A stretch of DNA of 36,508 nucleotides, taken from IMG/VR virus record IMGVR_UViG_2681813155_000011; one strand, 5' to 3'. The stretch is from a virus. Lineage: Duplodnaviria > Heunggongvirae > Uroviricota > Caudoviricetes. Of this stretch, positions 1 to 36,508 are shown in pieces (within the stretch, counting starts at the first letter, position 1; each line of letters begins with the position of its first letter). The translations under genes were made by a program, and so were the position numbers. The notes beneath the pieces were generated by a model. It searched no databases, was not told where the DNA came from, and saw only the letters and a list, made by a program, of their open reading frames with translations.

Positions 1-483
1 ATGACGAAGAAAAAAGCACATAAACCTGGTTCAGCGACCATCGCGCTTAACAAGCGCGCCCGTCACGAATACTTTATCGAAGAAGAGTTCGAAGCGGGAC
101 TTGCCCTGCAAGGCTGGGAAGTTAAATCCCTGCGCGCAGGAAAAGCCAATATCAGCGACAGCTACGTCCTTCTGCGTGACGGAGAGGCATTTCTGTTTGG
201 CGCTAACATCACGCCAATGGCCGTGGCCTCCACGCATGTGGTGTGCGATCCTACCCGTACCCGCAAGTTACTTCTCAACCAGCGCGAACTGGACTCATTG
301 TACGGTCGCGTCAATCGAGAAGGCTATACCGTAGTGGCGCTCTCCCTGTACTGGAAAAATGCCTGGTGCAAAGTGAAAATCGGCGTCGCCAAAGGTAAAA
401 AACAGCACGATAAACGTTCAGATATCAAAGAACGCGAATGGCAGGTGGATAAAGCACGCATCATGAAAAACGCCCACCGTTAA
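1..483 (+). CDS. smpB: SsrA-binding protein SmpB
   Basis: 160-aa ORF whose sequence ([56 protein letters not shown]...) I recognise as enterobacterial SmpB; sits immediately upstream of ssrA as in E. coli. Confidence 0.93.
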
Positions 484-697: not shown

Positions 698-1060
698 GGG
701 GCTGATTCTGGATTCGACGGGATTTGCGAAACCCAAGGTGCATGCCGAGGGGCGGTTGGCCTCGTAAAAAGCCGCAAAAAATAGTCGCAAACGACGAAAA
801 CTACGCTTTAGCAGCTTAATAACCTGCTTAGAGCCCTCTCTCCCTAGCCTCCGCTCTTAGGACGGGGATCAAGAGAGGTCAAACCCAAAAGAGATCGCGT
901 GGAAGCCCTGCCTGGGGTTGAAGCGTTAAAACTTAATCAGGCTAGTTTGTTAGTGGCGTGTCCGTCCGCAGCTGGCAAGCGAATGTAAAGACTGACTAAG
1001 CATGTAGTACCGAGGATGTAGGAATTTCGGACGCGGGTTCAACTCCCGCCAGCTCCACCA
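698..1060 (+). ncRNA. ssrA: tmRNA (SsrA), 363 nt
   Basis: Starts GGGGCTGATTCTGGATTCGACGGG and ends ...GGTTCAACTCCCGCCAGCTCCACCA, matching E. coli ssrA as I recall it; the 3' end is the prophage attachment site. Confidence 0.9.
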
Positions 1061-1062
1061 AA
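1016..1062. repeat. attL: 47-bp direct repeat (3' end of ssrA)
   Basis: atgtaggaatttcggacgcgggttcaactcccgccagctccaccaaa is repeated exactly at 34121..34167; read directly from the sequence. Confidence 0.85.
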
Positions 1063-1183: not shown

Positions 1184-1666
1184 ATGGAAGAACTTCACTT
1201 TGTTTACATCAATGCAAATGGTCGTATCGGTGTTCACTCAATACAGAGCATCAGTTATAGCGAAAATCACATACAGGGCATTTGTAAGAACACCGATCGA
1301 ATAAAAACCTTCCGAAAAGACCGCATTCTTAAACAATACGATTCACAAGAACAAGCCATTCAGGAATGCGCGTCATTCCTCCCCGAAAACTACTCACATC
1401 TCACTAAGCAGTCAGGTCCGAAAAAAAATACATTCGATGTGTGTTTCACCGGATTTAAGAAAGCAGATAAAGAAAGGTTGGTTGATAAGGCGAATGAACA
1501 AGGATTAACGGTAAGAACATCTGTAACCCAAAACCTTCAGATGCTCTGTTGCGGTTACAATGCAGGCCCATCAAAAGTATCGGCAGCCAGGATGAAAGGC
1601 ACTATCATCATAGATGAGCCTGGCTTTATACATTTTCTTGAAACGGGTGAGATCCCAGATGAATAA
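1184..1666 (+). CDS. Cargo protein with WYL-like N-terminal and BRCT-like C-terminal domain (function unknown)
   Basis: 160 aa, AGAGG 8 nt upstream of ATG. N-terminus ...HIQGICKNTDRIKTFRKDRIL resembles the WYL-domain end motif (R-x-FRLDRI). C-terminus DVCFTGFKKADKERLVDKANEQGLTVRTSVTQNLQMLCCGYNAGPSKVSAARMKGTIIIDE aligns by eye with the LigA-type BRCT fold pattern. Confidence 0.5.
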   Translation: MEELHFVYINANGRIGVHSIQSISYSENHIQGICKNTDRIKTFRKDRILKQYDSQEQAIQECASFLPENYSHLTKQSGPKKNTFDVCFTGFKKADKERLVDKANEQGLTVRTSVTQNLQMLCCGYNAGPSKVSAARMKGTIIIDEPGFIHFLETGEIPDE

Positions 1667-1979: not shown

Positions 1980-3080
1980 TTATTCCATTTCAAGATCACC
2001 AATTTTCACTTCAAGTTCAATACTGGTCGTAAAACCGTTATCCGGGCTGACGGTATGTGTCAGAGTCGTAATGGTCCATTCCGCATCATCTATTGGCTGT
2101 TTAAAGCCACTGACCTTCACAGGCATTTCCGTGTAGAGATCTGCCCGACCTTCCGCCAGTTGTAGCGAGAATGACGCAACACCGCGTTGCAGGCGTTCCC
2201 ACTGCATTTTCGCCGCTCGTTCGGCGTTGCTCCGGTTGGCATAAGTGCGATTAAGTACCAGCACGTTTTCATCCGTCCCCACCAGATAATCGCCCTGCTT
2301 CGCTTCCGGCTCTTTCTTCTGCTTCTTAGTTCTGCGCTTACGCTTCACCGTGGTGCTTTCTTTCTTCGCGGGTTCGCGGGTATGCAACCAGCTGGCAATG
2401 ACGCCCGTATAGGCTCCGCGATCTGCCAGGGTAAAGCGGTGACTGTCGCCGTCCTTACGCGTGATAGTGATCACCGGCAGTGGTTTACCGCTGGCGCTTT
2501 TGCCCTGTCCCTGCCGGATGAATAACAGATTGCCATTTTTCACCGACGCAATAGCACCGTACTGGCGCGCCAGTCGCATCAGAAAACTGCCGTCACTCTC
2601 ATTGGTCTGGTCTATATGTTCCACGGGTTTATCTGACAGGTCTTTACCCAATGCCATCTTCAGTTTGTGCCGTGCAGCTATTTCCTTCACCACTTCCCCA
2701 ACGGTGGTCTTGTGCCACGACTTTTCACGGCGGGTATTCAGCGTTTCACGAAAATCAGCACTTCGCGCCCGGATAGTCAGGCGGTCCGGTGCGCCAGTGT
2801 GTTCAATCTCGTCCACCGTGAATGCCCCTTTCGGGAAAAGCGGCTGCCCCTTCCAGCCCAGCGCCAGCGTAATAACCGCACCACGGCGCGGCAGCACGAT
2901 TTTTCCGTCGGCGTCGTCCAGCTCCAGATCAAGCTGGTCTGCTTCAAAGCCCCGATTGTCCGTCAGCGTCAAACTCATCAGGCGGTTATCCAGCACAGTG
3001 GTGATATCCCTGCCCTCAATACTGATGCTGCATGCGGGAGTTTTGTTGCCTTTGTTAAGCAGTTCAGAGCTGAAATTCAC
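1980..3080 (-). CDS. D: P2 gpD-like tail protein
   Basis: 366 aa, size and position (after U, before ogr) as in P2; 4-bp overlap with U. Confidence 0.75.
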   Translation of the reverse strand: MNFSSELLNKGNKTPACSISIEGRDITTVLDNRLMSLTLTDNRGFEADQLDLELDDADGKIVLPRRGAVITLALGWKGQPLFPKGAFTVDEIEHTGAPDRLTIRARSADFRETLNTRREKSWHKTTVGEVVKEIAARHKLKMALGKDLSDKPVEHIDQTNESDGSFLMRLARQYGAIASVKNGNLLFIRQGQGKSASGKPLPVITITRKDGDSHRFTLADRGAYTGVIASWLHTREPAKKESTTVKRKRRTKKQKKEPEAKQGDYLVGTDENVLVLNRTYANRSNAERAAKMQWERLQRGVASFSLQLAEGRADLYTEMPVKVSGFKQPIDDAEWTITTLTHTVSPDNGFTTSIELEVKIGDLEME

Positions 3081-3562
3081 GACAGCAGCCCTCCCACCGT
3101 TTTACTGATATCGCTTAAGGCAGACGTTGCCGTGTCCTGCAGATTATTCAGTTGCGCACTGAGATCACCGAACATATCGGACAGGGATTCATCCACCCGT
3201 TTGAGCGACAGGGTGAACTCAATCCGGCGCGGCATACCGTCGCGGAAAAACTCCGTTTTAGTCTGATTCAGTCCCTCAATCACATACATGCCGTAAATCG
3301 TGCCGCTGCCTTCAATCAGGGGCCATGCTTTCCCCTGTTCTGCCATCTGCTCCAGTACCAGCAACGACAGCCTGCCGCCTGTTATCTCCGGCATAAGAAC
3401 ACCAGAAAGCGTCAGCATGTCGTTGTCCGGTCCCAGAAACTGCGTGGACGGACGTCGGTTGACCCGGCTGTTTGCCGCATGTCGCCAGCTGCGTTGATAC
3501 TGCAGTTCCTGATACGGCACAGTGCGCAGCATAAACACGTACAATCCCAGCACCATCATCAT
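3077..3562 (-). CDS. U: P2 gpU-like tail protein
   Basis: 161 aa, between T and D, overlapping both; P2 synteny. Confidence 0.75.
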   Translation of the reverse strand: MMMVLGLYVFMLRTVPYQELQYQRSWRHAANSRVNRRPSTQFLGPDNDMLTLSGVLMPEITGGRLSLLVLEQMAEQGKAWPLIEGSGTIYGMYVIEGLNQTKTEFFRDGMPRRIEFTLSLKRVDESLSDMFGDLSAQLNNLQDTATSALSDISKTVGGLLS

Positions 3563-6500
3563 GCGTCGTATCCCCCCTGATCGCTGTAGTTACTCCTAGC
3601 TTTTGCCTTCAGCCTGCGTTCACGTTCATCAAGCTGGCGTGCCACCTCCCGCGCAATATCCTGCGCACTTTGTCCTGGCTGCGTCTGGATGATGATCTGC
3701 GTCGGTGCCTCAATCCGTTGAGCGGGCGGCACAGTGGCTGCACGACTCACCATCGCTTCGCCGCCTTTCGCGGGAAGTGCCAAAGGATGTAACGGCGGAA
3801 GCTCTGCAGGCGCGGCAGCAACGCCCATCATTCCGGCAACAACGGCAGCCAGTGCAGCTGTATTTCTCCGACTGGTCACGTTTGCCGGACCGTTGACAAT
3901 TTCAGGCCCGTTTTCACCGACAATGCCGAACTGCCCGCGCGGGATATAGCCGCCGCTGTCATACATCCCCGCAAAGCCATATCCCCATGACGGAAAACCA
4001 CCCGATGGCATCATCACTTTACCGTCTGCATTCACCGTCGCAGGTTGCTGACGCGTCACGCTTTCCGGCAGTTTCGCCTTTGCAGCCTCTTTACTGACAA
4101 TACCGAGTTTCTCCAGCAACCAGGAAACGCCGGATTTCAGGGAGTCCAACGGATGCATGACCATATTCAGCCCTTCCGCCAGTGCCTCCCCGAATCGTCG
4201 CCCCATTGCCGCTGCGCTCTGCAGTTCGGCAGAGGTCGACTTAACAGGCGTCAGCAGATCAGTAAACCAGCCCCACAACGCCTGTACTTTGTCGCCAATC
4301 CACTGGAACACGGGCTTAAGCGGTTCGAATGCAGCACTGATGGGACCTGCCGCCGCTTTGAATCCTTCCACCACGCCACCGAGAAATGCGGTGATGGGTT
4401 GCCAGTATTTCCAGACAACCAGCGCCACGCCCGCCAGTGCAGTAACCACAAGACCTATCGGACTGAGCAGAGCACCTAACAGACCAGATACGGCATACAG
4501 GGCAACGCGCAGCATCGCCAGCGGACCGGATGCCAGCACACGCAGCACCGCGCCTGCGGCAGCCAGTCCACCGCGTAGTGCTGCCAGTGGATTCATAAAC
4601 ATCACAGCAACCGCACGTAAACCGGATAATCCAGACCGCAACAGTGCAACCGGCACACCTGCTACAGTTTTCAGGACATTCCCCGTCAGTGATGCGGTGC
4701 GGCGCAAAGACGACAACGGCGCAGTAAGTAAACCCGCTGCGTTGCCCGATGAAGCAAGCCCGCGTCGCAGCAGTGCCAGTGGAGCGCCAGCTAACCAGGA
4801 CAACGCGCTGCTGGTTCGTGTTACTGCTGCCGTAACGGAAGGTAACGTTTTGATACCCAGCACAGAGAATCCCAGACGGATGACTGCCAGCGGCCCCAGC
4901 ACTGCAGCCAGCGCCACCGCTAAGGTGCCGAGGCCTACGGTAACCGCAGCCACAACAGCCGCTACTTTCATCAGTGTGCCTGTCAGTTCCGGGTTAGCTT
5001 CCACCCAGCGGCGCAACGCCCCCGTGATGCTTTTTACCGTGTACAGAATATCCATCAGCGGCTGGCGCAGCGTTTCGCCCAGGCTGCTGAAGGTGTTCTG
5101 CGCTCCGGTTTTGACCAGCAACCACTGAGCGGAAAGTGAGTCTTTGTTGATGTCGGATTCTTTCTGCATGGAACCGAGCGCATCATTGCCCGCTGTCAGT
5201 TTTAGCTGGCGCTGCAGTTCCGGAAGGTTGTTTGCCAGTTTCGCTGCATCATCACCAAACTCTTTACCAAACAACATGGTCATGGCAGACAGACGCTTGT
5301 CCTGCGGCAGTGCGTTCACCTTCTCCAGCACACGCTGGATAGTTCCCATCGCATCCTTCGTCATCTGCTTTTCAATCACTTCAGGATTGAGTTTCAGCAG
5401 ATTCATCCCTTCAAAGAAACTCTTACTTTGCATGGTGGCAATGGACAATTCACGCACCATCGCGTTTGCTGCACTGGCAGCAACCTCCGGCGCAGCGCCC
5501 AGTGTCAGGAAGGTGGAACCCAGCGCCGCCGCTTTACGATAATCCAGACGATCTGCCACACCGCCCAGGCGTTGCATGACATCAATGATGTCTGACCCTT
5601 TCGACATGGCGTTATCATCCAGATAGTTCAGCGCATCACCGAGCTGTTCAATATTGCGGGTAGGGATTTTGTAGAGCTGGGCGATTTTCCCCAGACTTTC
5701 TGACAGTTCATCCGCTGGCAGCTCAAAGGCTGTTGCCGCCTTTGCTGCCGTGCTGGCGAAGGCCAGCAGGTCACGTTTCTGGTCTTCCCAGCTGTCGTCA
5801 GGATTTGCGACGTTCATGCGCGCACCACCTTCAACAAGTGCGGCAAAGTCCACAGCACCGTTTTCCATCGGCAACTGTTCGCTGGCAGCCTTGATGGCAT
5901 CCTGCATTTCGTAAAAACGCGCAGTGCGGTTGCCATTATCATCACGCAGACCATTGACCTGCTTTGCCACACCTTTCATGGCATCTTCCATGCTGGTATA
6001 GCTTTTTACTGCTGCCATCACTGGCGCACCCATTGCCAGCCCTGCAGCCGTGGTAGTGGCTCCGGCTCCTGCGATGCGATCGCGCACTTCAAGCCGTCTT
6101 GAGTATTGTTCTCTGGCAGCGTTCATCCGTGCCTGTTGTTCACCCAGACGTTTAAGTGCTTTTTGCTGGCCCTCCAGTGCCTGCCTTGTTTCTTCAGCAT
6201 TTTTCTTAAGTTCTCGCTGGGCACTACTGAGTTGTCTGGTATCAATCCCTGATTCTTTAAGTGCCTGACGTTGTCTCTGGACCGCCCCCAACAAGCCGTT
6301 ATAGGTCTGCTGAAGTTCCTGTACTCGTGTTTTGGCCTGACTGAATAACTTTGCCTGCGCGGCGGTTGGCCTGTTAGTGGCAGCAAATTGTGTGGCGAGT
6401 TTTGCCGCCTCTTCGCGGGCTGCGTTCAGGTTGTTGGCTGTTATGGCTAGTTGCGAGCGCGTCTTGCGAAATTCATCAATTCTGCCAGCCTGCTTATTCA

Positions 6501-6636
6501 GTTCTTTGAGGCTGTTTCGGGTATTCTGAATTGCGCCAGCCAGCTCTTTCGAACTGGCCTGTGCAACACGGAATGGGCGGGTGAGTTTGTCAACCGCATT
6601 AAGAATGACCTGCAGCCGCAGGTTGTTATCACTCAT
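3559..6636 (-). CDS. T: Tail tape-measure protein (gpT-like)
   Basis: 1025 aa, coiled-coil-rich N-terminus and Ala/Gly/Leu-rich hydrophobic middle typical of tape-measure proteins; directly downstream of E/E'. Confidence 0.85.
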   Translation of the reverse strand: MSDNNLRLQVILNAVDKLTRPFRVAQASSKELAGAIQNTRNSLKELNKQAGRIDEFRKTRSQLAITANNLNAAREEAAKLATQFAATNRPTAAQAKLFSQAKTRVQELQQTYNGLLGAVQRQRQALKESGIDTRQLSSAQRELKKNAEETRQALEGQQKALKRLGEQQARMNAAREQYSRRLEVRDRIAGAGATTTAAGLAMGAPVMAAVKSYTSMEDAMKGVAKQVNGLRDDNGNRTARFYEMQDAIKAASEQLPMENGAVDFAALVEGGARMNVANPDDSWEDQKRDLLAFASTAAKAATAFELPADELSESLGKIAQLYKIPTRNIEQLGDALNYLDDNAMSKGSDIIDVMQRLGGVADRLDYRKAAALGSTFLTLGAAPEVAASAANAMVRELSIATMQSKSFFEGMNLLKLNPEVIEKQMTKDAMGTIQRVLEKVNALPQDKRLSAMTMLFGKEFGDDAAKLANNLPELQRQLKLTAGNDALGSMQKESDINKDSLSAQWLLVKTGAQNTFSSLGETLRQPLMDILYTVKSITGALRRWVEANPELTGTLMKVAAVVAAVTVGLGTLAVALAAVLGPLAVIRLGFSVLGIKTLPSVTAAVTRTSSALSWLAGAPLALLRRGLASSGNAAGLLTAPLSSLRRTASLTGNVLKTVAGVPVALLRSGLSGLRAVAVMFMNPLAALRGGLAAAGAVLRVLASGPLAMLRVALYAVSGLLGALLSPIGLVVTALAGVALVVWKYWQPITAFLGGVVEGFKAAAGPISAAFEPLKPVFQWIGDKVQALWGWFTDLLTPVKSTSAELQSAAAMGRRFGEALAEGLNMVMHPLDSLKSGVSWLLEKLGIVSKEAAKAKLPESVTRQQPATVNADGKVMMPSGGFPSWGYGFAGMYDSGGYIPRGQFGIVGENGPEIVNGPANVTSRRNTAALAAVVAGMMGVAAAPAELPPLHPLALPAKGGEAMVSRAATVPPAQRIEAPTQIIIQTQPGQSAQDIAREVARQLDERERRLKAKARSNYSDQGGYDA

Positions 6637-7065
6637 CGTTGGCCCCGCTTCTCTGAATCGCTTTATACCGCCATTCCAGCACTTCGGTCAGCGGCATAAC
6701 GTCAGTAACGGATGGCGGCCAGTGAAAGATGGTGGCGATATCAGCCACCAGATCGTCAACCGTCAGGCTGTCGGTAAACCGGCAAGCACCGACTTCTTCA
6801 ACAAAAAAGTGACAACCTCAACCGACATGGCAGTGAGATCTGCCGGGTCCATCTCTGCAATTTCCTGTGCAGTCAGTGCCGGACTGGAGATACGGGGGAT
6901 CACGGTCATCATCGCGTTCACATCCATATCCATAATGGCCTGCAGGCGTGTACCGCGCAGCGCACCGGACTGCGGTTTACGCAGCACAATTTCGGTGATT
7001 TCTGTTTTACCGCGCTTGATGGGGGTATCCAGTTGAATAGTCTTTTCAGTCTGCTTATCGCTCAT
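6629..7065 (-). CDS. gpE+E' -1 frameshift product (predicted)
   Basis: Reading by eye, a -1 shift at TTTTTTG (plus-strand 6802..6808) gives an extension that stops overlapping the T start codon (ATGAGTGA), as in P2 E+E'. Confidence 0.5.
6763..7065 (-). CDS. E: Tail assembly chaperone gpE-like
   Basis: 100-aa ORF between FII and T; ends ...TFLLKKSVLAGLPTA and contains the slippery heptamer T-TTT-TTG near its 3' end. Confidence 0.75.
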   Translation of the reverse strand: MSDKQTEKTIQLDTPIKRGKTEITEIVLRKPQSGALRGTRLQAIMDMDVNAMMTVIPRISSPALTAQEIAEMDPADLTAMSVEVVTFLLKKSVLAGLPTA

Positions 7066-31030: not shown

Positions 31031-31146
31031 AGTGCAGTATCTCTTAGTTTGGTTTCGTTTTATCTTGTTTTATGTGGTTTGGTTTTGCTTTTCAAACCAT
31101 AAATGGATATTAGGATCACTTTTTATATACGTCAAGGGGTTTGATT
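31031..31146. promoter_or_regulatory. Lysis-lysogeny switch region (pR/pL-like promoters and operator repeats)
   Basis: Minus-strand sigma70 promoter TTGACG-17-TAATAT (plus-strand 31130..31135 and 31107..31112); candidate plus-strand promoter TTGCTT-17-TATTAG; repeated GGTTTGGTTT motifs at 31046..31080. Confidence 0.5.
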
Positions 31147-31779
31147 ATGAGTTTGATCAAGGCGGGAAATGATAGTGGTGGGCGCGATGCAATTAACAGG
31201 CTTATTAAGGCTTACAACTTCAGCTCACGACAGCAGCTCTGCGAACATCTGGAGGTATCCAAAAGCACTATGGCTAACAGATACTTAAGGGATAGCTTTC
31301 CTGCTGAATGGGTAATTCAATGTGCCCTTGAAACAGGAGCTTCCCTTCTATGGCTGGCTACTGGTCAAGGAGATATGTATGCGTGTGAGAACGAAGAAAC
31401 AAATCTCAAAAATGAACCTCCCGTTACTGTAAGACCACTTTCTAAGATCGTTGCTCCTAGCATCAAACGTGTTGAACTGAAGAACGGCGAACTGCAGGCA
31501 AGTGATGAAATTCTTCTTGATAGCAGCCTGCTCGATGGTGACTCATCCAACGCTTTATTTGTTAAAACAGCTAATAATAGCTTTGTAGTGGATACGTCCG
31601 TTAAACAAGTCAGTAATGGCTTCTGGTTAGTCGATATGGACGGAGTTAAAAGCATCGTCAAAATTGCGCGCATACCCGGAAACAAAATAGTAGTTAACCA
31701 AGATGACACTTCATTTGAATGTTCTGTAGATGATGTGGAAGTCGTAGGACGTGCAGTCAAAGTAATCAAGAACCTCTAA
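31147..31779 (+). CDS. cI: CI-like immunity repressor (186 type)
   Basis: Start at ATG 31147 (AAGGGG RBS); N-terminal HTH (QLCEHLEVSKSTMANRYLRD); directly upstream of int. Confidence 0.7.
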   Translation: MSLIKAGNDSGGRDAINRLIKAYNFSSRQQLCEHLEVSKSTMANRYLRDSFPAEWVIQCALETGASLLWLATGQGDMYACENEETNLKNEPPVTVRPLSKIVAPSIKRVELKNGELQASDEILLDSSLLDGDSSNALFVKTANNSFVVDTSVKQVSNGFWLVDMDGVKSIVKIARIPGNKIVVNQDDTSFECSVDDVEVVGRAVKVIKNL

Positions 31780-31782
31780 CTT

Positions 31783-32805
31783 ATGACCATCAGAAAACAG
31801 CCGAACGGAAAATGGTTGTGTGAGTGCTATCCCAATGGACGCAATGGTAAGCGCGTGCGTAAGCAATTTGCTACCAAAGGCGAAGCCATTGCATTTGAAA
31901 GCTTCACCATGGACGAAGTAAACAAAAAGCCATGGCTTGGTGAGAAGGAAGATCGGCGGCGATTATCAGAAGTGATTGAGCAGTGGTATTCCCTATATGG
32001 TCAAACACTCGCAGACCCCAAACGCCTGATGGCGAAACTTAGAATTATCTGTAATGGTCTAGGCGATCCCATCGCCTCTGAGCTGACAGCAGGTGATTTC
32101 ACAAAATATCGGGAAGCCAGATTAAAGGGGGAGGTCCAAAATGAAGACGGCTCGTTCATGTCACCCGTTAAACCTCGCACAGTTAATCTTGAGCAGCGTA
32201 ACCTGTCATCGGTGTTCGGTACATTGAAAAAACTAGGGCACTGGTCCGCACCAAACCCGCTGGCAGGGCTTCCAACCTTCAAAATTGCTGAAGGTGAATT
32301 GGCTTTTCTTTCCACGGACGAAATCAAACGCCTGCTTAATGCCTGCGCCGAATCTCAAAACACCAGCCTACTAATGATTGCAAAAATATGCCTGGCTACT
32401 GGTGCGCGATGGAGTGAAGCAGAAAACTTGCAGGGCCATCAGTTATCAAAATACCGGATCACCTATACCAAGACAAAAGGTAAGAAAAATCGTACCGTGC
32501 CGATATCTCAAAATCTGTATGATGAACTCCCCAAGAATAGAGGGAAGTTATTCACGCCATGCAGAAAGGCTTTTGAACGAGCGGTCAAACGGGCTGGTAT
32601 TGAACTGCCTGAAGGTCAGTGTACCCATGTTCTGCGCCATACATTCGCCAGTCATTTTATGATGAACGGTGGAAACATACTCGTTTTGAAAGATATTCTT
32701 GGGCATTCAGATATTAAAATGACTATGATTTATGCACATTTTTCCCCTGATCATTTAGAAGATGCAGTAACTAAAAATCCACTTTATTCGCTATTAAAGG
32801 ACTAA
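31783..32805 (+). CDS. int: Tyrosine integrase (P2 Int-like)
   Basis: 340 aa; C-terminal catalytic region with HxLRHT and a Tyr near the end (...MIYAHF); immediately after cI. Confidence 0.85.
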   Translation: MTIRKQPNGKWLCECYPNGRNGKRVRKQFATKGEAIAFESFTMDEVNKKPWLGEKEDRRRLSEVIEQWYSLYGQTLADPKRLMAKLRIICNGLGDPIASELTAGDFTKYREARLKGEVQNEDGSFMSPVKPRTVNLEQRNLSSVFGTLKKLGHWSAPNPLAGLPTFKIAEGELAFLSTDEIKRLLNACAESQNTSLLMIAKICLATGARWSEAENLQGHQLSKYRITYTKTKGKKNRTVPISQNLYDELPKNRGKLFTPCRKAFERAVKRAGIELPEGQCTHVLRHTFASHFMMNGGNILVLKDILGHSDIKMTMIYAHFSPDHLEDAVTKNPLYSLLKD

Positions 32806-32808
32806 ATA

Positions 32809-34035
32809 ATGACTCTCCATCAAACTTTATCTAAAGAATTAAGAGATTTATTTGTTAGTATTTTAAGACGTTCTCTTTTTCGCCCCCCCATCAAAATAAA
32901 TGGGGATATAGTCTCTGATTTTTCAAACAGATGCGAGCAGTTCAAAGAGTGCCTAAATGAATACATTTGTGATAACAATAATGCTGCTTCTGAAAGAGTT
33001 AAACCAAGAATTAAAACTATTGAAAAAATACAACATGGATTAACTAATTCTCTTAAAGCATTTTTATCTGGCGACATTAAAGGAGCCTACGATATTTTTG
33101 ATGAAGTTTTATCATACCCTACTGTCTATAGACATCTAAGAAGAATATCCATTCCACTAAAAGAAATATGTAATAAGCACAAGCCTTTATTCAGGGTAAG
33201 AAAGTCAGATAGACCAGTCGTAACAAGAAAGGAAATCTTTCATATCCCATTCACTCATCGACATCTTGTCAATGCTCAACGCTATTCCGTTGCAGGTTTG
33301 CCATGCCTTTACTTAGGTTCATCTCTCTATATATGCTGGCAGGAAATGGATAAACCTGACTTTGATAAATTATACCTATCATCATTTATATCTTGGGATG
33401 AGGAATCCTATATTTTAAATTTAGCTGCAGATTTTCTTTACAGTAGAACCGCTAAAGGATTTTACGGTGATATTAGTAATAGAGACAACCTCATTAAAAT
33501 ATCATATTTAACTTTATGGCCTCTGATAATTGCATGTAATTATTTAAAGCAGAATGAAAACTCTTCATTTAATCAAGAATATATCATCCCAAATTTGTTA
33601 ATGCAGTGGATAAGTCGACTTGAAGATAGAGCTATTGTCGGCATAGCATATCGCTCAACAAAAATAAAAAGAACAGCAAACTCACACTTAGCAACTAATG
33701 TCGTCTTGCCTCCAAAAGTAAACTATGAAGACACAATCACAAAACCTTATTGTCAGAAACTATTGTCAATGTTTGAGTTTACTCAACCTGTATCATGGCA
33801 GGTTTTGAAAACATTAGACTATAAAATTGATAATGAAATAAATCAAGAGCAAGAAAAAGCAATTCATTTACTAAAACAGAAAGAAAGATTAAGTGGCATA
33901 AAAGATTTAAATGAAGATCTTATAAACCTTTATCCTTTAACAGACTTCTACAAGCTAGAACAGTGCATGGATCGCCTGCTGCAGTATGATGTACTTGAGA
34001 TAAAATCTGGCGGCACTTTGGCGGCAGAGCATTAA
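32809..34035 (+). CDS. Cargo protein with RES-domain-like core (candidate NAD+-targeting toxin/defence effector)
   Basis: 408 aa, strongly AT-rich, starts 3 bp after the int stop. QRYSVAGLPCLYLGSSLYICWQE and IVGIAYRSTKIKRTANSHLATNVVLPP fit the Arg / Glu / Ser motif order of the RES domain; extra N- and C-terminal regions of unknown fold. Confidence 0.5.
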   Translation: MTLHQTLSKELRDLFVSILRRSLFRPPIKINGDIVSDFSNRCEQFKECLNEYICDNNNAASERVKPRIKTIEKIQHGLTNSLKAFLSGDIKGAYDIFDEVLSYPTVYRHLRRISIPLKEICNKHKPLFRVRKSDRPVVTRKEIFHIPFTHRHLVNAQRYSVAGLPCLYLGSSLYICWQEMDKPDFDKLYLSSFISWDEESYILNLAADFLYSRTAKGFYGDISNRDNLIKISYLTLWPLIIACNYLKQNENSSFNQEYIIPNLLMQWISRLEDRAIVGIAYRSTKIKRTANSHLATNVVLPPKVNYEDTITKPYCQKLLSMFEFTQPVSWQVLKTLDYKIDNEINQEQEKAIHLLKQKERLSGIKDLNEDLINLYPLTDFYKLEQCMDRLLQYDVLEIKSGGTLAAEH

Positions 34036-34120: not shown

Positions 34121-34167
34121 ATGTAGGAATTTCGGACGCGGGTTCAACTCCCGCCAGCTCCACCAAA
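34121..34167. repeat. attR: 47-bp direct repeat (duplicate of the ssrA 3' end)
   Basis: Identical to 1016..1062; followed by the native ssrA downstream sequence including a GC hairpin + T-run (34215..34248). Confidence 0.85.
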
Positions 34168-34369
34168 ATTCTCCATCGGTGATTACCAGAGTCATCCGAT
34201 GAAGTCCTAAGAGCCCGCACGGCGCAAGCCCTGCGGGCTTTTTTGTGCTCCGAATTTGTCCCGCGAAGTCTGATGCCAACTAATTAAATCCGATCCTTTT
34301 AGGCACCTTGTTAGGCACTTCATAAAGCTATATTGTCTTTGAGGTGCCTAAAACTATGGAAACCCGGCA

Positions 34370-35611
34370 ATGGCAAGACAAACCAAACCTCTATCCGTTA
34401 AGGAAATCGAATCTGCTAAACCCAAGGAAGCGGACTACGTTCTCTATGATGGCGATGGCCTTGAGCTACTCATTAAATCCAGCGGGAGTAAAATCTGGCA
34501 GTTTCGCTACATTCGCCCTGTCACCAAGACACGAGCAAAGAAAAGCATAGGCCCTTACCCGTCAGTTACCCTTGCCGATGCCAGAAACTACCGTGCAGAG
34601 TCCCGCTCACTCCTAGCTAAACAGATTGATCCGCAGGAACATCAGCAAGAACAATTGCGTAGTTCGCTGGAAGCCAAAACCAATACTTTCCAGCTCGTAG
34701 CTGAACGTTGGTGGAATGTGAAGAAAGCCAGTGTGACAGAGGACTATGCGGAAGATATCTGGCGCTCTCTTGAAAGAGATGTCTTTCCTGCGATTGGCGA
34801 CGTTAGCGTTACAGATATTAAAGCTCATACACTGGTTCAGGCCGTACAACCGGTTCAGGCCAGAGGAGCACTGGAAACGGTTCGTCGCCTGTGTCAACGT
34901 ATTAATGAGGTCATGATCTATGCCCAGAACACAGGGCTGATTGATGCTGTTCCCAGCGTTAATATCGGTAAAGCCTTCGAAAAGCCTCAGAAAAAGAACA
35001 TGCCCAGCATTCGACCGGATCAGCTATCTCAACTGATGCAGACAATGCGAACAGCCAGCATTAGCCTTTCCACACGCTGCCTGTTCATGTGGCAACTTCT
35101 TACTATTACCCGCCCTGCCGAAGCGGCTGAAGCTCGCTGGGAAGAAGTAGACATAGAAGCGCAAGAGTGGAAGATTCCCGCAGCACGCATGAAAATGAAC
35201 CGCGACCATACTGTTCCATTGTCAGATGAAGCAATAGCTGTGCTGGAGATGATGAAACCGCTAAGCGGCAACCGAGAATTTATCTTTCCTAGCCGTATCA
35301 AGCCCAACCAGCCTATGAACAGTCAGACTGTTAACGCCTCACTAAAACGCGCAGGTTTTGGTGGTGTGCTTGTTTCGCATGGTCTGAGATCAATTGCCAG
35401 TACGGCTCTTAATGAACAAGGCTTTCCGCCTGATGCCATTGAGGCAGCATTGGCCCATGTGGATAAGAATGAGGTTCGTCGTGCTTATAACCGCAGCGAT
35501 TACCTGGAACAGCGTCGCCCGATGATGCAATGGTGGGCAAATTTTGTGATGGCAGCGGATCGTGGAAGCATGATTGAAGGTGGGATAAAAGGAATGAAGC
35601 TAGTTGGGTGA
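34370..35611 (+). CDS. intA: P4/CP4-57-family integrase
   Basis: 413 aa, MARQTKPLSVKEIESAKPKEADYVLYDGDGLELLIKSSGSKIWQFRY... resembles E. coli IntA, which sits at ssrA in K-12. Confidence 0.8.
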   Translation: MARQTKPLSVKEIESAKPKEADYVLYDGDGLELLIKSSGSKIWQFRYIRPVTKTRAKKSIGPYPSVTLADARNYRAESRSLLAKQIDPQEHQQEQLRSSLEAKTNTFQLVAERWWNVKKASVTEDYAEDIWRSLERDVFPAIGDVSVTDIKAHTLVQAVQPVQARGALETVRRLCQRINEVMIYAQNTGLIDAVPSVNIGKAFEKPQKKNMPSIRPDQLSQLMQTMRTASISLSTRCLFMWQLLTITRPAEAAEARWEEVDIEAQEWKIPAARMKMNRDHTVPLSDEAIAVLEMMKPLSGNREFIFPSRIKPNQPMNSQTVNASLKRAGFGGVLVSHGLRSIASTALNEQGFPPDAIEAALAHVDKNEVRRAYNRSDYLEQRRPMMQWWANFVMAADRGSMIEGGIKGMKLVG

Positions 35612-35810: not shown

Positions 35811-36086
35811 GTGGCTTCCATTTCCATCAGATGTCCTTCCTGCTCCGCTACTGAAGGCGTGGTGCGTAACGGCAAAAGCACTGCCGGACATCAGCGCTAT
35901 CTCTGCTCTCATTGCCGTAAAACATGGCAACTACAGTTCACTTACACCGCCTCTCAGCCCGGTACGCACCAGAAAATCATTGATATGGCCATGAATGGCG
36001 TCGGATGTCGCGCCAGTGCACGCATTATGGGCGTTGGCCTCAACACGGTTTTACGTCACTTAAAAAAATCAGGCCGCAGTCGGTAA
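35811..36086 (+). CDS. insA: IS1 InsA
   Basis: 91 aa [86 protein letters not shown]. Confidence 0.9.
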
Positions 36087-36508
36087 CCTCGCGCATACAA
36101 CCAGGCAGTGATGTGATTGTCTGCGCTGAAATGGACGAACATTGGGGCTACGTCGGTGCTAAATCACGTCAGCGCTGGCTGTTTTACGCGTATGACAGGA
36201 TACGGAGGACGGTTGTGGCGCACGTCTTCGGTGAACGCACTCTGGCCACACTGGAGCGTCTTCTGAGCCTGCTGTCGGCCTTTGAGGTCGTGGTATGGAT
36301 GACGGATGGCTGGCCGCTGTATGAATCACGCCTGAAGGGAAAGCTGCACGTTATCAGCAAGCGTTACACTCAGCGCATTGAGCGACATAATCTGAATCTG
36401 AGACAACATCTGGCAAGGCTGGTACGGAAGTCACTGTCGTTCTCAAAATCGGTGGAGTTGCATGACAAGGTCATCGGGCATTATCTGAACATAAAACACT
36501 ATCAGTAA
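36005..36508 (+). CDS. insB: IS1 InsB frame (transposase made as InsAB' by -1 frameshift)
   Basis: 167 aa ...[56 protein letters not shown]...; A-rich slippery run ttaaaaaaatc at 36060..36070. Confidence 0.85.

Follow-up and report, generated by a model that had tools for sequence, protein, structure and literature searches.

What does an AT-rich gene for a 408-residue protein do between the integrase gene (int) and the right attachment site (attR) of a P2-like prophage? The question is raised by IMG/VR record IMGVR_UViG_2681813155_000011, a 36,508-nt stretch of DNA from a member of the Caudoviricetes, which was analysed whole and is referred to here as the window; the gene occupies positions 32809-34035 of its plus strand. 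A first-pass annotation, made from the sequence alone, had recognised in the protein the motifs of a RES domain and had suggested an abortive-infection or superinfection-exclusion effector. That description turned out to be accurate in every respect, and our results support the interpretation. The protein is, to judge from its sequence, very probably a catalytically competent RES-fold enzyme. The explanation that we favour, with somewhat better than even confidence, is that it acts as a lysogen-expressed, single-polypeptide abortive-infection effector, which would cleave NAD+ when activated by infection.

The RES core and its flanking domains

The gene and the regions of its product are as follows.

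32809..34035, plus strand: gene of the RES-domain protein (YopC-like), stop codon included; open reading frame (ORF) list, ATG start, 408 aa
32809..33174, plus strand: N-terminal all-helical domain, aa 1-122, presumed to be regulatory or a sensor; AlphaFold2 (AF2) model
33175..33723, plus strand: catalytic core of predicted RES/ADP-ribosyltransferase (ART) fold, aa 123-305, boundaries approximate
33193..33201, plus strand: R129-V-R131 (motif LFRVRK), opposite R182/R184 of aRES proteins; hhalign
33280..33345, plus strand: R158-Y-S...L-Y168-L-G-S-S...E179 block, opposite aRES R215/Y225/E236; BLASTP and hhalign
33649..33714, plus strand: Y281-R-S283-T...N297-V-V-L-P-P302 block, opposite aRES S334/N349; BLASTP and hhalign
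33724..34032, plus strand: C-terminal helical extension, aa 306-408, with conserved motifs SWQVLKTL and LYPLTDFYKLE; alignment and AF2

The motif blocks pointed out in the first-pass annotation (R158-Y159-S160, L167-Y-L-G-S-S172, E179, Y281-R-S283-T and N297-V-V-L-P-P302) are indeed present in this order, and they hold the most conserved positions of the family. In a diverse set of 79 relatives (A2; 25-53% identity, 25% mean column identity), R129, R131, R158, S160, Y168, S172, E179, S283 and N297 are invariant or at least 90% conserved; R158, S160, Y168 and E179 are invariant and R129, R131, S283 and N297 nearly so. The conserved RES active site of the toxin NatT consists of R23, R82, Y93, S184 and N193 (PMC11535050). 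By motif and via aRES, rather than by direct superposition, the R158/Y168 block corresponds to NatT R82/Y93, and S283/N297 to S184/N193. Together with a profile match of the core to aRES, described below, this conservation of catalytic residues bears out the RES-like identity that had been claimed.

The first-pass annotation had looked to the Pfam RES family and to structure prediction for confirmation, and here the outcome was divided. The Pfam match did not materialise: PF08808 scores 11.6 bits (E 0.29; residues 142-180 against profile positions 10-48), below the gathering threshold of 23.2 bits. The structural expectation, on the other hand, held, since the core of the predicted model was judged to have the RES/ART three-dimensional fold, its best structural match being the NAD+ phosphorylase MbcT. 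RES is also the Pfam family most often matched by relatives of the protein (14 of 30 close homologues at E<=1; 23 of the 79 diverse relatives at E<=0.01, the best at 1.5e-5). Foldseek against PDB and BFVD returned nothing at E<=0.001, and profile searches of PDB chains with the close (A1), diverse (A2) and core-only (A3) alignments gave helical-bundle noise and no RES chain. The only strong family match is PHROG 7835 (E 1.4e-178 over aa 1-397), a family of unknown function, and the protein cluster identical at 100% (P0001) is named 'hypothetical protein [Escherichia coli]'.

The flanking regions are of a different character. In the AF2 model the N-terminal domain forms helices at residues 3-19, 34-55, 59-64, 67-86, 90-101 and 104-113 with a predicted local distance difference test score (pLDDT) of 81-98; neither in the protein nor in its relatives does this domain match any Pfam family. 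The C-terminal extension is modelled as helices (pLDDT 63-86) ending in 15 disordered residues. Mean identity in the close and diverse sets is 64% and 40% for the RES core and 42% and 19% for the N-terminal domain, with the C-terminal tail intermediate. Such a pattern is what would be expected if an effector that stays constant were coupled to a recognition or regulatory module that diversifies.

The most informative comparison is with aRES, stand-alone RES proteins of 300-600 aa that have no operon partner (Osterman et al., bioRxiv 10.64898/2026.01.28.702374, Jan 2026). In E. coli they confer protection against diverse phages, accompanied by growth arrest and NAD+ depletion, the products being nicotinamide plus ADP-ribose-1''-phosphate (ADPR-1''-phosphate, ADPR-1P), and mutations in predicted active-site residues abolish defence; the mutant constructs are R182A, R184A, R215A, Y225A, E236A and S334A (10.64898/2026.01.28.702374). 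The authors require both domains of the PF18870 + RES architecture and estimate its presence in ~4% of genomes (10.64898/2026.01.28.702374). As references we used the three tested sequences from Table S4 of the preprint and a 45-member aRES profile. BLASTP aligns the window protein and aRES of E. coli UC5, their cores in register (E 0.009), pairing R158/Y168/E179/S283 with aRES R215/Y225/E236/S334 and N297-VVL with N349-VVL. The hhalign comparison of the full-length family profile with the 45-sequence aRES profile gives 91.2% (E 1e-6, 258 columns) and places LFRVRK on aRES LFRARV, so that R129/R131 correspond to R182/R184; core against core reaches 94.6% (E 7.3e-8). The aRES definition demands RES at >80% profile-profile probability, a value that the window protein exceeds by proxy, in hhalign against the aRES profile. 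The spacing R-10-Y-11-E is identical, and all six residues of the aRES mutant set are kept in the window protein (as R129, R131, R158, Y168, E179 and S283, invariant or nearly so in the 79 relatives). Both proteins are stand-alone, similar in size (aRES ~459 aa vs 408), without an operon partner, and found in Enterobacteriaceae.

Outside the core the likeness ends. The N-terminal regions of the two families show no relation in hhalign (0.5%), nor do their C-terminal tails (0.3%). The N-terminal domain of aRES is the Cys-rich PF18870 (HEPN_RES_NTD1) with invariant C8/C11/C31/C34, which the window protein lacks; aRES proteins match PF18870 at 2.7e-10 to 1.8e-3, whereas neither the window protein nor any of 108 scanned relatives does. 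On Pfam RES, aRES proteins score 53-55 bits against the 11.6 of the window protein. The two homologue sets do not overlap, and B. subtilis, LF82 and the Salmonella serovars where the YopC-like family is common are all missing from the aRES genome table. Moreover, aRES was described from defence islands, while the gene studied here sits in a prophage int-att slot. We considered membership of aRES proper and rejected it on the missing PF18870 domain and the absence from the aRES genome table; by sequence, the protein resembles aRES at its core but is outside aRES as defined. A minor point of nomenclature is that the preprint Methods print the RES accession as PF00808; RES is PF08808, which aRES sequences match.

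The protein also departs from other known systems. RES-Xre type II toxin-antitoxin (TA) toxins (MbcT, NatT, P. putida Res, VPA0770 and ParT) are single-domain proteins of 144-250 aa, whereas the window protein has 408 aa in three regions, extra N- and C-terminal domains and no neighbouring antitoxin. With the SIR2/DSR, TIR, SEFIR and NIR effectors it shares the proposed logic, in which a sensor fused to an NADase brings about growth arrest on infection; these differ, however, in catalytic fold and in product, which is ADP-ribose (ADPR) for them and ADPR-1P for RES.

The prophage and its int-att slot

The features that define the element and the position of the gene within it are listed below.

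31141..31779, plus strand: 186-type CI repressor gene (cI); Pfam Phage_CI_repr 8e-33, Phage_CI_C 5e-40
31783..32805, plus strand: tyrosine integrase gene (int); Pfam Int_N 1.7e-28, Phage_integrase 3.6e-25
698-1060: tmRNA gene (ssrA), intact; Rfam match
1016..1062, plus strand: attL core at the ssrA 3' end, exact 47-bp repeat of 34121-34167
34121..34167, plus strand: attR core, duplicated ssrA 3' end, exact 47-bp repeat of 1016-1062
34226..34240, plus strand: first terminator-like hairpin 3' of the RES gene, a copy of the ssrA terminator

An exact 47-bp repeat of the ssrA 3' end is expected 0 times by chance, and together with ssrA, the sole Rfam match in the window, it delimits a ~33-kb P2-like prophage integrated in ssrA, with the RES gene between int and attR. 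The first-pass annotation had placed an AT-rich 1.2-kb gene in this interval with no antitoxin gene beside it, and both statements hold: the ORF is intact, its GC content is 0.31-0.35 (0.41-0.50 in flanking phage and host DNA), the attR repeat lies 85 nt beyond its end, and the ORF list of the window offers no antitoxin-like candidate next to it. Small antisense ORFs inside the RES gene were considered as a hidden partner and dropped for want of support.

The gene appears to belong to the lysogenic part of the phage genome. cI, int and the RES gene lie on one strand with gaps of 3 nt each, and the Shine-Dalgarno sequence of the RES gene, AAGGA (32797-32801), lies within the 3' end of int. No terminator-like hairpins were found between the three genes. 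Because of this coupling and the lack of terminators, we infer that the RES gene is expressed on the lysogenic transcript, that is, that cI-int-RES is a presumed lysogenic operon with cI first, in which the RES gene would be co-transcribed with int. A promoter scan found sites no more numerous than in shuffled sequence, and a gene-specific promoter is neither claimed nor excluded. RNA-seq data for strain LF82, a lysogen of phage Cartapus, are consistent with such expression. Transcript levels of Cartapus int, which lies directly 5' of the orthologue of the RES gene, clearly exceed the prophage background (log2 ~5.7-6.4, against ~2.3-3.4 for structural genes), which supports lysogenic expression of the adjoining RES gene.

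The content of the slot varies between related prophages. Among 5426 complete E. coli genomes, 222 carry a related integrase (80-95% nucleotide identity), and 7 carry the RES allele of the window, in all cases annotated 'hypothetical protein'. In five other E. coli genomes with a related integrase, sampled for the content of the slot, it holds the following.

KL53: 352-aa hypothetical membrane protein (L038:4022-5080)
USMARC-51688: 343-aa relative of the KL53 membrane protein (L039:4023-5054)
ETEC-2265: 222-aa orphan protein
MFDS1019527: GapS1 (L041:4027-5547), NCBIfam antiphage_GapS1 at 428 bits vs a cutoff of 320
NCTC11023: empty

All occupants have a GC content of 30-35%, and the three cargo alleles that were counted are rare (6, 11 and 15 of 5426 genomes); the last figure is that of the GapS1 allele of MFDS1019527, which several annotations call hypothetical. 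Compared with Cartapus, the window prophage is 93% identical in int and 100% in the attL-side moron, the RES proteins being only 50% identical. The int-att position behaves as a variable one-gene accessory hotspot, and among its alternative occupants at least one is a member of a curated antiphage family.

The membrane proteins found in this slot form a family of their own (343-375 aa, hydrophobic N-termini, 30-50% identity among members), unrelated to the RES family and matching neither Pfam nor PADLOC. Its GC content is 30-34%, or 42% in Ferrimonas. In KL53 and USMARC-51688 members stand alone; in Citrobacter (L003:4810-5937) one separates int from the RES gene, and in Ferrimonas (L012:7186-8238) one lies directly 3' of the RES homologue. 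A further member is at L037:4525-4911. Members of the family are candidates for an accessory or defence role, or for that of an occasional partner.

Several other observations concern the prophage ends. Directly inside attL, a 160-aa ORF (1184-1666, plus strand) is 100% identical to Cartapus gp32, a 'putative exonuclease' that is expressed 15-fold above prophage background in LF82 lysogens; its product shows weak similarity to BRCT (E 9e-4) and to the C-terminal part of PADLOC PDC-S48 (1.7e-7). With this ORF by attL and the RES gene by attR, the prophage has cargo beside att at both ends. About 200 nt past attR begins a second integrase of P4/CP4-57 type (34370-35611, plus strand; NCBIfam PRK09692, 933 bits), so that ssrA carries two elements stacked in tandem. 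After this integrase, at 35811-36508 (plus strand), come IS1-like InsA/InsB ORFs, identified by eye, that run off the end of the window. In strain CFSAN061761 the equivalent second island has DUF4435 and AAA ATPase genes, which we take to be the domains of the PARIS defence system. At the other extremity, 5' of ssrA, a 160-aa ORF running from the first base (1-483, plus strand) is probably smpB, judged by its position beside the tmRNA gene.

The YopC-like family and its neighbourhoods

With sequences clustered at 50% identity, an exhaustive HMMER search yields 2429 family representatives at E<=1e-3, of which 1798 remain at E<=1e-10; most are 360-400 aa long. Family loci come from Enterobacteriaceae, Aeromonas, Ferrimonas, Bacteroidales, Polyangium, Acidobacteria, Paenibacillus, Clostridia and Sedimentisphaerales, and members in deposited phages are RE-2010 gp01, Cartapus gp33, SopEΦ orfY and SPβ YopC. 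YopC of the Bacillus phage SPβ, named 'RES domain-containing protein' in RefSeq, matches the family model at E 8.5e-98, with all its catalytic residues in place; it differs in its length of 442 aa and in lying far from att within a 134-kb phage, after the helix-turn-helix (HTH) gene yopB. The product of orfY of the Salmonella phage SopEΦ is 43% identical to the window protein, is encoded in the same cI-int-orfY order and was annotated in 2003 as similar to YopC. Cartapus gp33 and RE-2010 gp01 (Elveevirus, Felsduovirus) share both slot and family at 50% identity; gp33 is, however, a distinct allele, whose record reads 'putative RES protein, NAD+ binding domain' on computational grounds only. 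The Cartapus paper does not discuss gp33, and in the literature we found neither a paper on yopB/yopC or on the RES gene of Fels-2-like phages nor functional data for YopC or orfY. In Aeromonas bestiarum (L010) the family member is split into a 71-aa ORF resembling the N-terminal helices (5786-6001) and a 293-aa ORF with the RES core (6067-6948), which probably reflects a frameshifted pseudogene or else an error in sequencing.

All enterobacterial copies examined belong to the cI-int module of a P2-like prophage, usually in the order int-RES, with the variants int-X-RES (Citrobacter, L003) and cI-RES-int (Klebsiella, L008). Across 34 loci no recurrent neighbour of family members was found. In the window the only same-strand neighbours are cI and int, and a partner is likewise absent in Cartapus, RE-2010, SopEΦ and CFSAN061761. 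There is no HTH antitoxin gene in the window or in the enterobacterial loci; small HTH genes precede Firmicute relatives only. In SPβ (L044), the 75-aa HTH gene yopB (2288-2515) lies just 5' of yopC (2623-3951). In two clostridial loci, Xre-type HTH ORFs encoding 83-84 aa precede family members of 313-314 aa: one (L032, 5625-5879) ends 10 nt 5' of the family member at 5890-6834, and the other (L034, 5621-5872) overlaps the family member at 5869-6810 by 4 nt. YopB has no detectable sequence similarity to the clostridial HTH proteins. With HTH-paired members in Firmicutes and solo members in proteobacterial prophages, the family therefore spans TA-like and solo arrangements. The idea that the short clostridial members had traded the N-terminal domain for an HTH partner was dropped, as only ~26 N-terminal residues are missing relative to the query. 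Among 26 non-enterobacterial loci, we found single instances of a CBASS (cyclic oligonucleotide-based antiphage signalling system) cyclase with a four-transmembrane (4TM) effector, a DRT (defence-associated) reverse transcriptase, a GajB-like helicase, PDC-S01 and AbiEi, next to genes of conjugation and transposition and housekeeping genes. These neighbours are suggestive of an association with defence or mobile elements; they do not amount to proof.

Proposed mechanism, competing explanations and significance

The observations on fold, conservation, position and slot variability can be brought together in the following way. The effector would be held inactive in the lysogen; upon sensing an infecting phage, the flanking domains would release the RES core for cleavage of NAD+, probably a phosphorolysis like that of MbcT, NatT and aRES, which yields nicotinamide and ADPR-1''-phosphate. 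The infected cell would then stop growing, and the incoming phage would be blocked. Autoinhibition and trigger recognition might both be provided by the variable N-terminal domain, possibly with the C-terminal extension, in place of a separate antitoxin. The gene would thus be lysogenic-conversion cargo, probably translated from the cI-int transcript, in a slot that lies between int and attP of ssrA-integrating Fels-2/186-like phages.

A number of points weigh against this explanation. The HTH gene in front of Firmicute relatives makes a toxin-antitoxin-like layout. Neighbourhoods outside prophages are mixed, some with defence genes, some with conjugation or transposition genes and some with housekeeping genes. 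CARTA_33, the RES gene of Cartapus, has no entry in the LF82 expression table, so that expression in the lysogen is something that we infer. AF2 confidence is just 63-80 in part of the RES core, and neither PADLOC nor NCBIfam has a model matching the protein. Finally, at least one RES enzyme, ParT, is a protein ADP-ribosyltransferase, so that NAD+ depletion is not the sole possible chemistry.

The first of these points leads to the idea that the protein is the toxin of a TA-like addiction or persistence module, its antitoxin function being, in proteobacterial prophages, fused as the N- or C-terminal domain or supplied in trans, and that it serves prophage maintenance or stress dormancy rather than defence. 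Canonical RES proteins are type II TA toxins (PMC11535050), held in check by an HTH antitoxin that is encoded next to them and blocks their active site with its C-terminal helix (PMC11535050), and a small HTH gene does precede the Firmicute members of SPβ (yopB-yopC), L032 and L034. Moreover, according to the 2024 NatT paper, a link to immunity had not been made for any RES TA system (PMC11535050); since then, however, stand-alone RES proteins have been found to be antiphage (10.64898/2026.01.28.702374). No HTH gene or other partner accompanies the window gene or any enterobacterial copy, and the HTH proteins of the Firmicute relatives, at just 75-84 aa, leave little room, judged by length, for the C-terminal toxin-binding domain that RES antitoxins are described to have (PMC11535050). 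The gene is also dispensable for this type of prophage, the slot of relatives being empty or otherwise filled. We therefore regard an addiction or persistence role as unlikely, bearing in mind that TA function and abortive infection are not mutually exclusive.

About as doubtful, in our view, is a ParT-like activity, in which the protein would be a target-specific ADP-ribosyltransferase acting on a defined protein or nucleic acid of the host or phage instead of draining the NAD+ pool. The precedent of ParT itself speaks for it, whereas the best structural match of the predicted core is the NAD+ phosphorylase MbcT, and the closest sequence relatives of known function, aRES, make ADPR-1P. A role in the service of the phage, as a counter-defence or host-takeover enzyme of lytic growth or as an accessory factor of integration and excision, has still less to recommend it and appears improbable. 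The gene is phage-encoded and adjoins int and att, and phage ARTs such as T4 Alt and ModB modify host proteins (cited in PMC9503650), but orientation and tight coupling put it in the cI-int lysogenic unit and not in the lytic operons; it is missing or replaced in closely related functional prophages, antiphage GapS1 occupies the same slot, and no link is known between RES domains and recombination. That the protein is a decayed or non-catalytic RES homologue, whose resemblance is enzymatically meaningless, is hardly credible: the sub-threshold Pfam score and the empty Foldseek and profile searches of PDB would fit it, but the ORF is intact, the 2429 cluster representatives of the family are spread over many phyla, and in an alignment of 25% mean column identity all catalytic positions are invariant or nearly so, which indicates purifying selection on the active site.

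If the abortive-infection explanation is extended from the protein to its family, YopC-like proteins would constitute a second, independently built stand-alone RES immune family, in which an aRES-like, NAD+-phosphorolysing core is combined with a different, fast-evolving sensor and delivered to Enterobacteriaceae by Fels-2/186-like phages, through a one-gene int-attP defence hotspot not described before. We give this broader proposal an even chance. Such proteins, expressed from the lysogenic cI-int transcript, would sense other phage cues than aRES and might escape aRES-specific inhibitors. Were the proposal true, the 343-375-aa membrane proteins and the 222-aa protein of the slot would become candidate new defence genes.

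RES domains, their chemistry, their stand-alone use in immunity (since 2026) and the RES label on the Cartapus orthologue were already known. What is new is a separate, large and uncatalogued RES family with different accessory domains, located in a variable int-att slot of ssrA-targeting P2-like phages. NAD+ phosphorolysis by RES joined the known immune mechanisms only in 2026, through the single architecture PF18870 + RES. Here, a second large family, which ranges from Enterobacteriaceae to Bacillus, Clostridia, Acidobacteria and Bacteroidales, combines that catalytic core with flanking domains unrelated to those of aRES. Neither the Pfam thresholds nor PADLOC, NCBIfam or the pipeline for aRES detection pick it up, and it is labelled 'hypothetical' in RefSeq. 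If the family is active in defence, the share of bacteria relying on NAD+ depletion is underestimated, and prophages of pathogens (SopEΦ and RE-2010 of Salmonella; Cartapus of the adherent-invasive E. coli LF82) hold an unrecognised immunity gene. Two sensor domains on one effector would then allow a comparison of how RES activity is switched off and on. The int-att slot itself is a practical place to search for more single-gene systems.

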